Virus record (IMG/VR): IMGVR_UViG_648861009_000005 | Strand: one strand, 5' to 3' | DNA length: 49,397 nt | Source: a virus | Taxonomy: Duplodnaviria; Heunggongvirae; Uroviricota; Caudoviricetes | In this document: positions 43,990 through 49,397 of the stretch, one piece after another | Layout: each line of letters begins with the position of its first letter | Numbering within the stretch: position 1 is the stretch's first letter | Notes under the pieces: generated by a model | The model's database searches: none | Seen by the model: only the letters and a program-made list of their open reading frames with translations | Told to the model about the DNA's origin: nothing | Translations under genes and position numbers: made by a program

Positions 43990-44589
43990 ATGCGTAAAGT
44001 TTGTGCAGCCATTTTGTCCGCAGCCATCTGTCTGTCCGTATCCGGTGCGCCTGCATGGGCGTCTGAACATCAGCCCACACTGAGCGCGGGGTATCTTCAT
44101 GCCCGTACGAACGCTCCCGGCAGCGATAATCTGAACGGGATTAACGTGAAATACCGTTATGAGTTTACGGACGCGCTGGGGCTGATTACGTCCTTCAGTT
44201 ATGCCAATGCTGAGGATGAGCAAAAAACGCACTACAGCGATACCCGCTGGCATGAAGATTCCGTGCGTAACCGCTGGTTCAGCGTGATGGCGGGGCCGTC
44301 TGTACGCGTGAATGAATGGTTCAGCGCGTATGCGATGGTGGGTGTGGCTTACAGCCGTGTGTCGACTTTCTCCGGGGATTATCTCCGCGTAACTGACAAC
44401 AAGGGGAAAACGCACGATGTGCTGACCGGAAGTGATGACGGTCGCCACAGCAACACGTCTCTGGCGTGGGGGGCTGGCGTGCAGTTTAACCCGACCGAAT
44501 CCGTAACCATTGACCTTGCTTATGAAGGTTCCGGTAGTGGCGACTGGCGAACGGATGCATTTATTGTTGGTATCGGATACCGTTTCTGA
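43990..44589 (+). CDS. lom: Outer-membrane protein Lom (Ail/Lom family)
   Basis: Signal peptide; GINVKYRYE, SVMAGP, AYAMVGVA, YEGSGSGDWRTD.FIVG.GY.F match lambda Lom. Confidence 0.9.
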   Translation: MRKVCAAILSAAICLSVSGAPAWASEHQPTLSAGYLHARTNAPGSDNLNGINVKYRYEFTDALGLITSFSYANAEDEQKTHYSDTRWHEDSVRNRWFSVMAGPSVRVNEWFSAYAMVGVAYSRVSTFSGDYLRVTDNKGKTHDVLTGSDDGRHSNTSLAWGAGVQFNPTESVTIDLAYEGSGSGDWRTDAFIVGIGYRF

Positions 44590-44740
44590 CAACAGACGCC
44601 GATTTATCTTCTGTAAATATTGTTATGATACGCAGGTTCATCCACCTTATGGGGTGAACTGCGTTTGAGGAAACGTAAAGTTACACTGTCCTGAAGCCCG
44701 TGGCGTCACTGCTGCGGGCTTTTTTTATTGGTGGAAAAGT

Positions 44741-47700
44741 ATGACAGTAAAAATTTCTGGCGTGCTTAAAGATGGCACAGGAAAACCAGTACAGAACTGC
44801 ACCATTGTGCTGAAGGCCAGACGAACCAGCAGCACGGTGGTGGTGAACACGGTGGCCTCTGAAAATCCGGATGAAGCCGGACGTTACAGCATGGATGTTG
44901 AGCATGGCCAGTACAGCGTCACCCTGCTGGTTGAAGGTTTTCCGCCTTCACATGCCGGGACCATTACCGTCTATGAAGGTTCCAGACCAGGTACGCTGAA
45001 TGATTTTCTCGGTGCCATGACGGAGGATGATGTCCGACCGGAGGCACTGCGCCGCTTTGAGCAGATGGTGGAAGAGGTGTCACGTAACGCCTCCGCGGTT
45101 GCACAGAATACGGCAGCCGCGAAAAAATCAGCCAGCGATGCCAGTGCATCAGCCAGCGAGGCGGCAACTCATGCAACCGATGCTGCAGCCTCAGCACGTG
45201 CCGCCAGCACGTCAGCCGGACAGGCCGCGTCGTCGGCTCAGTCAGCGTCTTCCAGCGCAGGAACGGCATCGACAAAGGCCCGTGAAGCAGCAAAAAGTGC
45301 TGCTGCTGCAGAGTCATCAAAAAGCGCGGCAGCTACCAGCGCCAGTGCCGCGAAAACGTCAGAAACGAATGCCGCAGCATCACAAAAATCGGCAGCCACT
45401 TCTGCATCCACAGCGACCATGAAGGCGTCAGAAGCTGCCACCTCGGCACGGGGTGCGGCGGCCTCAAAAGAGGCAGCGAAATCTTCAGAAACGAATGCAT
45501 CATCAAGTGCCAGTAGTGCAGCTTCCTCGGCAACGGCGGCAGGAAATTCCGCGAAGGCGGCAAAAACGTCCGAGACGAACGCTAAGTCTTCTGAAACAGC
45601 AGCGGGACAGAGCGCCTCAGCTGCGGCAGGTTCAAAAACAGCGGCTGCATTATCTGCCAGTGCCGCGTCAACAAGTGCCGGGCAGGCCTCAGCCAGTGCC
45701 ACCGCCGCCGGAAAATCGGCAGAAAGCGCCGCATCATCCGCTTCAACAGCCACAACGAAGGCTGGCAAAGCCACTGAGCAAGCCACTGCAGCAGCGAGGT
45801 CTGCTTCTGCAGCAAAAACCTCTGAAACAAATGCAAAGACTTCAGCAGACAATGCTGCTTCCTCTAAGGCGGCAGCCGCATCGTCAGCCAGTTCAGCGGC
45901 GTCATCGGCATCATCTGCGTCTGCTTCAAAAGATGAGGCGACCAGACAAGCGTCAGCAGCGAAAGGTAGTGCCACGACAGCAACAACGAAAGCATCAGAG
46001 GCGGCAGGCAGTGCGACGGCTGCATCTCAGAGCAAAGTTGCTGCTGAATCCGCGGCAACGCGCGCCGAGACAGCAGCAAAACGGGCAGAGGATATTGCAT
46101 CCGCCGTGGCGCTGGAGGATGCGAGCACGACGAAAAAGGGGATAGTACAGCTCAGCAGTGCAACAAACAGCACCAGTGAAAAGCTGGCGGCAACGCCAAA
46201 GGCAGTTAAAACTGTTAAAGATAGTTCAGTTCAAAAAACTGGCGACACAATGGGAGGGCAGTTAAAAATCAGCACGATAAATGCTCTTCGAATATTCAAC
46301 CAAGCCTTTGGCCTTATTTTTAGGCGTTCCGAAGATCATCTTCATCTTATTCCGACTAATGAAGGGGAGGGGGAAAATGGAGACATCGGTTCATTAAGAC
46401 CATTCTCTATAAACTTAAGATCAGGGTTGGTGTCCATCGGTAATGGACTAAAAGTTGGTGGTAGTGTTACTGGTAATTTGACCGGAAACGCAGATACTGC
46501 GACCAAGATCAAGACAGCACGTAAGATTGGGGGCGTGGCATTTGATGGATCGGCAGATATCAACTTGCCTGGAGTCAACGCTACCGGTAATCAAAACACT
46601 ACAGGTAATGCTGCGACCGCCACGAAACTTCAGGCAGCCAGAACGATTAACGGTGTGTCATTTGATGGTAGTGCAAATATCACATTGACCCCTTCAAATA
46701 TTGGGGCATTGGCATTAACTGGAGGGACTCTTTCAGGTGGTTTAACTGCTGCTGGTGAGGTTATTTCAAGGTCAGCAAATGGTCTGCGTATTGCCTATGG
46801 CAACTATGGATTCTTTATCCGAAATGATGGATCAAACACATATTTTATGTTGACAGATTCGGGTAACAGTCTTGGTACGCACAATAGCTTAAGGCCGTTT
46901 ATAATTAGTAACCATACTGGCAATGTTACAATTGCAACTAAATTAAACGCGAGTGGTGGTATCACTGGATCTTTATCGGGTAATGCAAGCACAGCAACCA
47001 AATTGCAAACTGCAAGGACAATTAACGGCGTAAAATTTGACGGCTCGGCAAATATTGAAGCGTTTCCGCCAGGTGTTCCGCTGCCGTGGCCATCAGATAC
47101 ACCACCTGCAGGTTATGCGATCATGCAGGGGCAGACGTTTGATAAGGCAGCATATCCGAAACTGGCTATTGCCTATCCTTCAGGTGTTATTCCAGATATG
47201 CGCGGCTGGACAATCAAGGGCAAACCCGCCAGTGGCCGGGCCGTATTGTCTCAGGAACAGGACGGCATAAAATCGCACACCCACAGCGCCAGCGCATCCA
47301 GTACGGATTTGGGGACGAAAACCACATCGTCGTTTGATTACGGCACTAAATCCACGAATAACACCGGGGCGCATACGCACAGTCTGAGTGGCTCTACGGG
47401 GTCTGCCGGTGTTCATACTCATGGTAATGGTATTCGTTGGCCAGGAGGCGGCGGTTCTGCGTTAGCATTTTATGATGGCGGTGGGTTCACTTATGTCCAG
47501 AATTCACAGTATCAAGTAAGCCCGGAGACTTCTTCCTATAGATCGTATTATCAACGTATTCAGACACAGTCAGCAGGTGCTCATACCCACTCGCTGTCTG
47601 GTACTGCAGCAAGTTCTGGCGCACATGCACATACTGTAGGTATTGGTGCGCATACGCACTCCGTTGCGATTGGTTCACATGGACACACCATCACCGTTAA

Positions 47701-47767
47701 CGCTGCGGGTAACGCGGAAAACACCGTCAAAAACATCGCATTTAACTATATTGTGAGGCTTGCATAA
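44741..47767 (+). CDS. stf: Side tail fibre protein Stf
   Basis: N-terminus near-identical to lambda Stf ([20 protein letters not shown]); Ala/Ser-rich repeats; His-rich C-terminal repeats ending [18 protein letters not shown]. Confidence 0.9.
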
Positions 47768-48351
47768 TGGCATTCAGAATGAGTGAACAAGCACGGACCA
47801 TAAAAATTTATAATCTGCTGGCCGGAACTAATGAATTTATTGGTGAAGGTGACGCATATATTCCGCCTCATACAGGTCTGCCAGCAAACAGTACCGATAT
47901 TGCACCACCAGATATTCCTGCTGGCTTTGTGGCTGTTTTCAACAGTGATGAGGCATCGTGGCATCTCGTTGAAGACCATCGGGGGAAAACGGTTTATGAC
48001 GTAGCGTCAGGGGACGAGTTATTTATTTCTGAACTCGGTCCGTTACCGGAAAATGTTACCTGGTTATCGCCGGAAGGGGAGTTTCAGAAGTGGAACGGCA
48101 CAGCCTGGGTGAAGGATACGGAAGCAGAAAAACTGTTCCGGATCCGGGAGGCGGAAGAAACAAAAAACAACCTGATGCAGGTAGCCAGTGAGCATATTGC
48201 GCCGCTTCAGGATGCTGCAGATCTGGAAATTGCAACGGAGGAAGAAACCTCATTGCTGGAAGCCTGGAAAAAGTATCGGGTGTTGCTGAACCGTGTTGAT
48301 ACATCAACTGCACCTGATATTGAGTGGCCTACGAACCCTGTCAGGGAGTAA
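47767..48351 (+). CDS. tfa: Tail fibre assembly protein Tfa
   Basis: Size and position match lambda Tfa; start overlaps the stf stop. Confidence 0.85.
48190..48351 (+). repeat. Direct repeat, copy 1 (tfa 3' end); copy 2 at 49235-49397
   Basis: About 160 bp with roughly 88% nucleotide identity flanking the methyltransferase gene. Confidence 0.8.
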
Positions 48352-48405
48352 TCATTGGGATTATGCCGCAGCACGTCTTAAGCAAGAACGTGCTGCGGTT
48401 GGATG

Positions 48406-49074
48406 CTATTTTTTCCCTGAAGCGGAAAACATTACTACAGTACCTTGAACCTTGGTTTTAACATTCTCGAAATGCTCTGAGAGTATATGTGTTAAGCCTT
48501 CTTCGGAATCTTTTGTGTTTGAAAAGATGCCTTTCTGATTGTAAATGCGCATCAGTTTTTGACCGAAGCTATTGTGCACAACTCCATCGCCAAGAATTGT
48601 GGCTCCGTATAGAGTTCCATCGTCAGTTAAGGCCTGCGCCGCATTGCGTATTACACAGCTTTTTGTAGATATATTTCCAGGCAGGCAGTGAAGAAGGTAA
48701 AACATGGAAATGGAATCAAATTGACCATGTAACGCCGCGGGATAAGGTTCAAAAACATCATGGCTAATTTTATGTTTAATTTTTGATTCCCCAGCCCTTG
48801 TAGATGCCGCGTTCAGGCTAGCTTCGTTCAAATCCATTAAAGATATCAGACTACTCTCAGGTACGTGAGTAAGGTAAAACCCAGTTCCAACACCAATATC
48901 CAGATGGTTGTTACCTACATGTTCCAGAAAGTGTGGAAGAAGGTGTTCCTTTGTAGGACATCCCCATGCAAGCCGATTTGATACTCCCAAAACCCACCAG
49001 TCATAAAGCTTTAGGGTAAGTGGTGTGTAAATTTTAGCCCCATCATCTGTGTTTTTTTTCATTGATTTCACCAT
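48406..49074 (-). CDS. Class I SAM-dependent methyltransferase (substrate unknown)
   Basis: LDIGVGTG glycine-rich motif I; low-GC gene on the opposite strand; the ATG at 49062 with GGTGA RBS may be the true start. Confidence 0.6.
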   Translation of the reverse strand: MVKSMKKNTDDGAKIYTPLTLKLYDWWVLGVSNRLAWGCPTKEHLLPHFLEHVGNNHLDIGVGTGFYLTHVPESSLISLMDLNEASLNAASTRAGESKIKHKISHDVFEPYPAALHGQFDSISMFYLLHCLPGNISTKSCVIRNAAQALTDDGTLYGATILGDGVVHNSFGQKLMRIYNQKGIFSNTKDSEEGLTHILSEHFENVKTKVQGTVVMFSASGKK

Positions 49075-49130
49075 GTTATAGTTTTATTTGTGAATTAAAT
49101 CAATTATGGCGATGAATTACAAGGGGTTAA

Positions 49131-49397
49131 ATGCTGCCGCAGCATAGCGATATTGAAATAGCCTGGTATGCTTCGATACAGCAGGAGCCGAATGACTGGA
49201 AGACCGTCACCACACAGTTCCACATCCAGGAATTCAGTGAGTATATTGCGCCACTGCAGGATGCTGTAGATCTGGAAATCGCAACGGCGGAAGAAAGATC
49301 GTTGCTGGAGGCATGGAATAAATATCGGGTATTGTTGAATCGTGTTGATACATCAACTGCACCTGATATTGAGTGGCCGACTTCACCTGCAGAGTAA
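49131..49397 (+). CDS. Tfa-like tail fibre assembly protein (short, C-terminal domain only)
   Basis: 88 aa; C-terminal 55 aa about 85% identical to the Tfa C-terminus ([41 protein letters not shown]). Confidence 0.6.

Follow-up and report, generated by a model that had tools for sequence, protein, structure and literature searches.

What is a low-GC methyltransferase gene doing at the end of a lambdoid prophage, between a complete and a fragmentary tail fibre assembly (tfa) gene, and how did it come to lie there? The question is raised by the right-hand end of the virus record IMGVR_UViG_648861009_000005 (Caudoviricetes), a stretch of 49,397 nucleotides that was analysed as a whole and is called the window below. 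A preliminary description of the locus had proposed that the gene was captured by recombination between tfa copies, and that its product might be an orphan enzyme protecting phage DNA or else a small-molecule methyltransferase, with a partner gene perhaps waiting beyond the window edge. We conclude, with a probability of roughly 0.78, that we are dealing with a 'moron', a cargo gene of the prophage, and not with part of a DNA modification system.

An intact ybcY allele beside a complete tfa gene

The final 5 kb of the window are the tail end of a lambdoid prophage. The complete tfa gene (47767-48351, plus strand) encodes a protein of 194 amino acids that matches Caudo_TAP at E 1.9e-44 and phrog_105 at E 9e-101 and shares 94% amino-acid identity with lambda orf-194. 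It is followed on the minus strand by the methyltransferase open reading frame (ORF; 48406-49074), which encodes 222 amino acids as annotated and matches the Pfam families Methyltransf_12/23/25/11. A short tfa-like ORF of 88 amino acids, referred to here as tfaX-like, comes next on the plus strand (49131-49397), and its stop codon is the exact edge of the window. The GC content amounts to 41.1% in the methyltransferase gene and 26.8% in its upstream spacer, compared with 50.6% in the whole window. The arrangement set out in the preliminary description, a minus-strand, low-GC methyltransferase gene with the motif LDIGVGTG between a complete tfa and a short tfa-like gene, is thus correct in every particular.

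The methyltransferase gene is an intact allele of ybcY from the DLP12 prophage of Escherichia coli K-12. It shares 99.0% nucleotide identity with the K-12 ybcY pseudogene, and residues 5-222 of its product cover positions 1-218 of the phrog_2132 (YbcY family) profile at E 4e-157. The copy in phage PhiR26_1 carries the annotation YbcY. With this full-length profile match, the near-identity to K-12 ybcY and the same tfaD/tfaX synteny, the gene belongs to the YbcY family. The short ORF matches phrog_2341; like phrog_2132, this is a PHROGs family of unknown function. In DLP12, the tfaD-ybcY-tfaX segment (b0561-b0563), located upstream of appY/ompT, has the same gene order and strands, the same TTGATT-17-TATAAC element in the divergent spacer and the same tfaX N-terminal sequence. 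However, ybcY is frameshifted there, tfaD is truncated at its 5' end and tfaX stops at codon 61, whereas here both the methyltransferase gene and tfa are intact and the relic spans 88 amino acids. The 1.7-kb region 47700-49397 is 100% identical in many E. coli chromosomes, that of ATCC 25922 among them. Literature searches on ybcY and tfaX returned table or context mentions only and no functional study.

A class I enzyme of the small-molecule or lipid type

The predicted protein is a class I (Rossmann-fold) methyltransferase dependent on S-adenosylmethionine (SAM), as judged from a GxGxG-type motif I, acidic residues and a seven-stranded sheet. SAM-binding motif I (LDIGVGTG) occupies residues 58-65, and the Pfam gathering scores were exceeded for Methyltransf_12, _23, _25 and _11. 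Across 43 homologues 55 alignment columns are invariant, the SAM-binding motifs included. An AlphaFold model built on a 43-sequence alignment (predicted local distance difference test score 90.6) consists of one Rossmann domain and a helical lid at the N-terminus. No hydrophobic stretch resembling a membrane span was seen, the highest 19-residue Kyte-Doolittle mean being 0.95.

The best sequence and profile matches in the Protein Data Bank were juvenile-hormone acid methyltransferase (JHAMT, profile E 6e-6), UbiG and ToxA, and the Foldseek neighbours were bacterial PmtA, JHAMT, phosphoethanolamine methyltransferases, SgvM and NodS; a fold search in BFVD added nothing specific. The match to PmtA 8ys9 reached a template modelling (TM) score of 0.61-0.64 at 15-18% sequence identity. 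The closest structures compared (JHAMT 7ec0, PmtA 8ys9, PfPMT 3uj7, DhpI 3ou2, Coq5 4obw and UbiG 4kdr) share only 12-21% identity with the protein, and their scores are flat, none ranking clearly first. Three NCBIfam models for neighbouring enzymes gave 15.7 bits against a cut-off of 390 (NF045882, the phospholipid N-methyltransferase PmtA), 16.9 against 175 (RquA, rhodoquinone biosynthesis methyltransferase-like) and 18.0 against 180 (CpaM, corrinoid-associated), and the protein belongs to none of these families. Because the scores fall more than tenfold below the cut-offs, no substrate can be transferred from them. The class itself is clear from profile and fold neighbours: this is a methyltransferase for small molecules or lipids, in agreement with the second option of the preliminary description, an RNA substrate being less likely.

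The first option, an orphan DNA methyltransferase shielding phage DNA from host restriction, had been the leading idea. Orphan methyltransferases of the Dam or Dcm type are carried by many temperate phages, and SAM motif I is present in the protein, as expected under this proposal. Yet no DNA-methyltransferase Pfam family was matched at E <= 0.01, and the catalytic motif (D/N/S)PP(Y/F/W), including its DPPY form, is absent. This places the protein outside the N6-adenine/N4-cytosine DNA methyltransferases (N6_Mtase, N6_N4_Mtase, MethyltransfD12, Dam). It does not belong to the C5-cytosine enzymes either: there is no PCQ motif, the single ENV, at residue 203, has no C5 context around it, and PF00145 gave no match. 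The predicted structure, with its one Rossmann domain and helical lid, lacks a target-recognition domain, no DNA methyltransferase appeared among the top 50-60 fold matches, and the homologues are stand-alone chromosomal or plasmid genes without a restriction partner. The PADLOC defence-system models yielded one marginal match (mad2, E 0.009, 12.9 bits), which reflects the generic methyltransferase core; a defence-system reading was rejected for this reason. Taken together, protection of phage DNA is a highly improbable role for the enzyme.

A methyltransferase acting on a macromolecule (tRNA, rRNA or protein), for instance one that tunes translation in the lysogen, has to be weighed separately, as the class assignment leaves room for an RNA substrate. 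However, the best sequence matches are small-molecule carboxyl/O-methyltransferases (the JHAMT, UbiG and ToxA matches given above), no RNA-binding or extra domain is apparent in the predicted structure of the 218 residues, and no NCBIfam RNA-methyltransferase model was reached. We consider such a substrate unlikely.

Start codon, promoter motif and hairpin

The annotated start of the methyltransferase gene is the ATG at 49074. All of the aligned homologues (42 of 42), as well as the PHROG profile, begin at codon 5 (M5). Upstream, in the 26.8% GC spacer, a candidate sigma-70-type promoter for the gene, TTGATT-17-TATAAC, was recognized on the minus strand (49075-49103) as an exact motif match that is unique in the window and occurred zero times in shuffled sequences. 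Its -10 hexamer directly adjoins the annotated ATG. The annotated start is disfavoured because a transcript from this element would begin within the first four annotated codons; the true start is probably ATG 49062, giving a protein of 218 amino acids, and the database entry of 222 amino acids is then four residues too long. The identical motif is listed for the spacer between ybcY and tfaX of K-12 in a chip study of RpoD holoenzyme binding by systematic evolution of ligands by exponential enrichment (SELEX), which marks this spacer as an H-NS site (PMC3946193).

Downstream, a hairpin (48365-48399) separates the convergent tfa and methyltransferase genes. It was identified from its RNA fold energy on both strands, with -30.7 kcal/mol on the plus strand (z -3.5) and -25.4 kcal/mol on the minus strand (z -3.8), and it directly follows the tfa stop codon. 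The plus-strand T-run behind it overlaps the final methyltransferase codons. The same hairpin is kept in lambda downstream of tfa, where the homology to the window extends past the tfa stop and through the hairpin and ends at about 48400, at the end of the methyltransferase gene. A simple terminator scan did not call the 48365-48399 hairpin; it is nevertheless likely that the structure serves as the terminator of the late operon and as an insulator for the two convergent genes. A RefSeq hypothetical protein of 45 amino acids (WP_001309429.1, 48324-48461), on the strand opposite to the methyltransferase gene, overlaps the tfa stop, the hairpin and the methyltransferase 3' end, and is probably a spurious gene call.

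Absent from lambda at the homologous position, deviant in GC content, equipped with a promoter motif and flanked by a hairpin, the gene has the features of a phage moron at the sequence level. We infer that the methyltransferase would be made in the lysogen and not as a virion function.

The short tfa-like reading frame is a decaying fusion

In Tfa proteins, a variable N-terminal fibre-binding domain is joined to a conserved C-terminal helical domain (PMC9608196, citing North et al. 2019). About the last 57 residues of the tfaX-like ORF match Caudo_TAP (PF02413), exclusively at positions 75-131 of the 131 positions of the hidden Markov model, and the two-domain organization of a tail fibre assembly protein is missing from 49131-49397. 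The 5' part of the ORF (49131-49234, plus strand) is not derived from tfa: residues 3-37 match phrog_3893 at E 4e-5 and show 48.6% identity (tblastn) to Klebsiella phage Kp4882-3, in which a 79-amino-acid ORF continues into a different C-terminus. In phages, DNA matches to 49131-49234 are confined to carriers of the cassette, that is, of the methyltransferase gene together with the tfaX-like ORF. It may be added that the 79-amino-acid ORF of Kp4882-3, whose family phrog_3893 has no assigned function, sits upstream of an ORF that resembles a UmuD/S24-type peptidase by eye.

The tfaX-like ORF is a decaying, non-functional fusion of about 33 codons from an unrelated small phage ORF and about 55 codons from a tfa 3' end. 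Alleles of 32, 61, 66, 82, 88, 89 and 101 amino acids exist, which differ by nonsense mutations, frameshifts and rearranged or different tails, and RefSeq lists 49131-49397 as a pseudogene missing its N-terminus. Two candidates for a full-length tfa bearing the 5' part of the relic (H192 and H195) were examined and rejected as deletion derivatives of DLP12-like remnants.

The position of the methyltransferase gene beside the side tail fibre gene stf and tfa might suggest that the enzyme serves the virion, by methylating the tail fibre or Tfa, and that the short ORF is a working second chaperone; this ORF does have a good Shine-Dalgarno sequence (AAGGGG, 4 nt, ATG) and a conserved Tfa C-terminal domain. 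The methyltransferase gene, however, lies on the opposite strand, past the hairpin of the late operon and behind a promoter motif of its own. It is absent from lambda, the Tfa of which is 94% identical, yet it is found behind unrelated fibres in phage 2G7b. The short ORF, for its part, lacks the fibre-binding N-terminal domain and is variously truncated in other alleles. A virion function is hardly credible on these grounds.

The tfa direct repeat and a homologous crossover

The 3' end of tfa and the tfaX-like ORF share a direct repeat. In the best ungapped local alignment, the left copy (48186-48329) and the right copy (49235-49378), both on the plus strand, are identical at 128 of 144 positions (88.9%); a repeat search paired 48175-48332 with 49224-49381 (158 nt, 87%, spacing 1049). 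The direct repeat of about 160 bp and 88% identity reported in the preliminary description could accordingly be reproduced at 144-158 bp and 87-89%. The repeat is due to homology, not chance, and its left copy encodes the conserved C-terminal helical domain of Tfa (domain assignment according to PMC9608196).

A comparison of cassette carriers revealed that methyltransferase gene and relic form a constant unit and that the left neighbour varies. It is a full tfa in this window, in PhiR26_1 and in DLP12. In 2G7b it is a 39-codon tfa 3' remnant behind a different, non-lambda fibre set, and in PhiR68_2 a minus-strand pin gene (Pin-type serine recombinase) together with a YnaE-like ynaE gene. In O157:H7, the slot between tfa and the methyltransferase gene holds genes for a manganese catalase, two ferritin-like proteins and a general stress protein on the minus strand. 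Since the left neighbours vary, the interval is a general cargo slot. The closest relatives are found in PhiR26_1, PhiR29, PhiR30_1, 2G7b, ev243, Turner, Kati and PhiR68_2, in which a methyltransferase of 98-99% amino-acid identity is followed by the tfaX relic, and the cassette likewise lies between tail-fibre genes and the attachment site.

On the right-hand side this window departs from most carriers. In the coliphages named above, the cassette is followed by an alpha/beta hydrolase gene or appY and then by ompT, and DLP12 likewise runs on into appY and ompT, whereas here the cassette is the last phage element before attR. After the stop codon of the relic there are about 250 bp of a non-coding phage right arm, then universal homology to the host gene potB. 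Of the 5426 complete E. coli genomes, 918 have this right arm, which also provides the final ~18 nt of potB. The prophage of ATCC 25922 is inserted between potB and potC, its integrase being at the far end. In uninterrupted genomes potB and potC overlap. Inspection of the flank up to host potB brought to light no partner gene for the methyltransferase, and the expectation that one might lie past the window edge is dismissed by the non-coding arm and the host gene behind it.

The source of this right-hand end is suggested by the potB-site prophage of enteropathogenic E. coli E2348/69, whose terminal gene, a full-length tfa, precedes the same 232-bp arm. At the informative sites, the window agrees sixteen times in a row with the PhiR26_1 type of tfaX (49226-49340) and then, at all of the following 13 (49343-49377), with the complete terminal tfa of the E2348/69 prophage. 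To this prophage it is identical at 57/57 positions over 49341-49397, and the flank past the window edge at 233/237. This clean switch of informative sites shows that the cassette was joined to the potB-site phage and its attR by homologous crossover at 49341-49342, within the conserved tfa 3' segment of the relic. The repeat copies, which differ by 11%, are different alleles and not the product of a recent in-situ duplication. Nor do they mark the original insertion: the homology to lambda on the left reaches to about 48400, beyond the repeat, and the original joint on the right is the illegitimate fusion between the small ORF and the tfa 3' end. The earlier idea of recombination between tfa copies thus stands insofar as a crossover did occur within the tfa 3' segment, but the repeats do not delimit the capture of the methyltransferase gene. 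Phage Ayreon, considered as a possible empty ancestral site, was rejected as such. It retains a tfa 3' remnant and the hairpin, ~35 nt from the end of the methyltransferase gene, and the 5' part of tfaX, is devoid of the equivalent of ~48440-49105, and represents an internal methyltransferase deletion.

Prevalence and maintenance in E. coli

The methyltransferase gene is present in 3832 of the 5426 complete E. coli genomes (~71%), with up to four copies per genome, and the best copy is at least 98% identical in nearly every positive record. At least 80% of the repeat-methyltransferase-repeat unit was found in 3424 genomes, and 14 records of lambdoid coliphages carry the gene. Cassette copies of 98.6-99.8% identity were also noticed in records labelled as a Bacillus thuringiensis CT-43 plasmid (HM037272.1), a 'Bacillus sp.' metagenome-assembled genome and a Planococcaceae metagenome-assembled genome; most likely, these represent E. 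coli contamination or mis-binning.

Such a distribution might also be reached by a functionless hitch-hiker, a silenced and decaying passenger in linkage with neighbours under selection, such as ompT. The frameshifted pseudogene in K-12 and the internal deletion in Ayreon would be in line with this explanation, as would the H-NS site in the spacer, the evident decay of the adjacent tfaX and a ratio of nonsynonymous to synonymous substitution rates (dN/dS) in E. coli that is not clearly low. Against it, 10 of the 13 full-length E. coli-type copies that were extracted are uninterrupted ORFs, the other three having the K-12-type 2-bp deletion, and in almost all of the 39 E. coli genomes sampled, the gene is listed by RefSeq as a normal coding gene. 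Moreover, the gene has been retained in this window despite the loss of ompT from the cassette, and the 55 invariant residues with all SAM motifs are preserved across genera and mobile elements. On balance, a mere passenger is quite unlikely.

Several points weigh against our interpretation of the gene as functional prophage cargo. The dN/dS value among E. coli copies, about 0.45, rests on a handful of substitutions, and purifying selection is undemonstrable at such low diversity. The evidence for the promoter comes from K-12, where ybcY is a pseudogene and the spacer is bound by H-NS; given this binding, the gene may be largely silent. The fold matches are non-specific, and no substrate or phenotype is attached to the enzyme. 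Finally, the direction of the exchange is not fixed by the informative sites: an E2348-like phage may have acquired the cassette, or the E2348-like layout may have arisen through deletion between the repeats.

The wider YbcY family

Homologues of 50-68% identity occur in Enterobacter, Citrobacter, Klebsiella, Salmonella and Yersinia (including Y. pestis), in Erwinia, Pantoea, Proteus and Photorhabdus, and in Pasteurellaceae, the Pseudomonas syringae group, Xanthomonadales and Oxalobacteraceae. In a collection with one genome per species, 527 homologue loci were counted. Where homologues were examined in Enterobacter, Salmonella and Yersinia, they proved to be chromosomal and monocistronic, with surroundings that are non-phage. 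When the ORFs within 3.5 kb of 91 loci were clustered, synteny was seen within genera only and no neighbour family recurred across genera; therefore, no pathway can be inferred from gene context. Linkage to tfa is restricted to the E. coli-type copies, and variants of 79-90% identity in Citrobacter and Salmonella reside in island-like contexts beside DinI, PerC and transposase genes.

A homologue is found on more than 600 Klebsiella plasmids, and on hypervirulence plasmids it adjoins rmpA. The rmpA-adjacent methyltransferase of Klebsiella pneumoniae (pK2044, BAH65943.1; pRJA166b) is ~65% identical over its full length to the phage protein and is likewise a monocistronic cargo gene of a mobile element; it differs in being plasmid-borne and in having no tfa context. 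So far, this plasmid homologue has figured solely as a marker gene that is associated with liver-abscess strains (PMC5126061).

The YbcY family is thus a group of recurrent accessory cargo genes, one lineage of which entered the coliphage pool. The preliminary description had named a housekeeping enzyme without prophage-specific distribution as the outcome that would speak against it, and the picture is mixed on this point. The gene encodes no known housekeeping enzyme and is strictly prophage-linked in E. coli, but the wider family is not prophage-specific.

Two further observations concern single genomes or genera. Escherichia albertii NBRC 107761 has a 100% identical copy of the phage type as well as a second, 64% identical paralogue on another contig. 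In Proteus spp. a conserved ORF pair (408 and 213 amino acids) flanks the homologue; by inspection of their sequences, these two ORFs resemble PAPS-reductase-like and ParB-like (IbrA/IbrB-like) proteins, which would suggest an island context.

Tail-fibre surroundings

Farther to the left in the right-hand 5 kb of the window lie lom (43990-44589, plus strand) and stf (44741-47767, plus strand). The stf product of 1008 amino acids matches the Pfam families phage_tail_N, Gp34_trimer, Collar and Phage_fiber, and is named prophage tail fiber N-terminal domain protein in RefSeq. This gene is context only and lies outside the cassette. Two repetitive regions were noted within it, five diverged copies of a 33-nt unit in an Ala/Ser-rich repeat region (45116-45841) and short repeats encoding G-A-H-T-H in the part for the C-terminus (47366-47659).

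A second, partial tfa downstream of stf and tfa is also a feature of the invertible tail-fibre segments Mu G, P1 C and e14 P, which are served by Gin, Cin and Pin. Here, however, the second copy is direct, on the same strand as tfa, and no alternative fibre C-terminus accompanies it. A repeat search found no inverted repeats in 44600-49397, and the ORFs of the last 5 kb, the small ones of which were not scanned against profile libraries, include no evident invertase. With the relic in direct orientation and inverted repeats lacking, the locus does not belong to this group, and an invertible segment was rejected as an explanation.

Discussion

According to the interpretation that we favour, prophage cargo, a soluble, single-domain class I methyltransferase of ~218 amino acids would be transcribed from a position just past the hairpin of the late tail operon and in the opposite direction. 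Transcription would start at an AT-rich sigma-70 promoter of its own, which in K-12 is bound by RNA polymerase holoenzyme and lies within an H-NS site. The enzyme might methylate a cytoplasmic metabolite or a lipid head-group to the benefit of the host. Methyltransferase gene and relic travel jointly among the lambdoid phages of E. coli, usually with appY or the hydrolase gene and then ompT behind them. In the lineage of this window, the crossover has swapped the ompT-side cargo for the potB-site phage's own tfa tail and right arm, and the direct repeat is the footprint of this modular exchange.

A broader idea can be put forward tentatively and with low confidence. YbcY-family enzymes might represent a widespread, unrecognised function in lysogenic conversion or on virulence plasmids, altering a metabolite or membrane head-group or detoxifying a compound derived from the gut or from competitors. 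Such a function might have been captured repeatedly by mobile elements (lambdoid phages, rmpA-locus plasmids, Salmonella and Citrobacter islands) and might be held down by H-NS until needed.

The feature itself is real and ordinary: an already annotated ybcY-tfaX cargo cassette beside a recombination scar, known in K-12 and in thousands of E. coli genomes. It offers a clean, base-resolved example of the conserved tfa 3' end as a site of homologous crossover that moves cargo between lambdoid phages. Among the uncharacterised cargo enzymes of E. coli prophages, YbcY is one of the most prevalent, with a relative beside rmpA on hypervirulent Klebsiella plasmids. That the K-12 copy is a pseudogene may explain why the gene has never been studied, and whatever function is discovered in a wild strain would hold for very many genomes.

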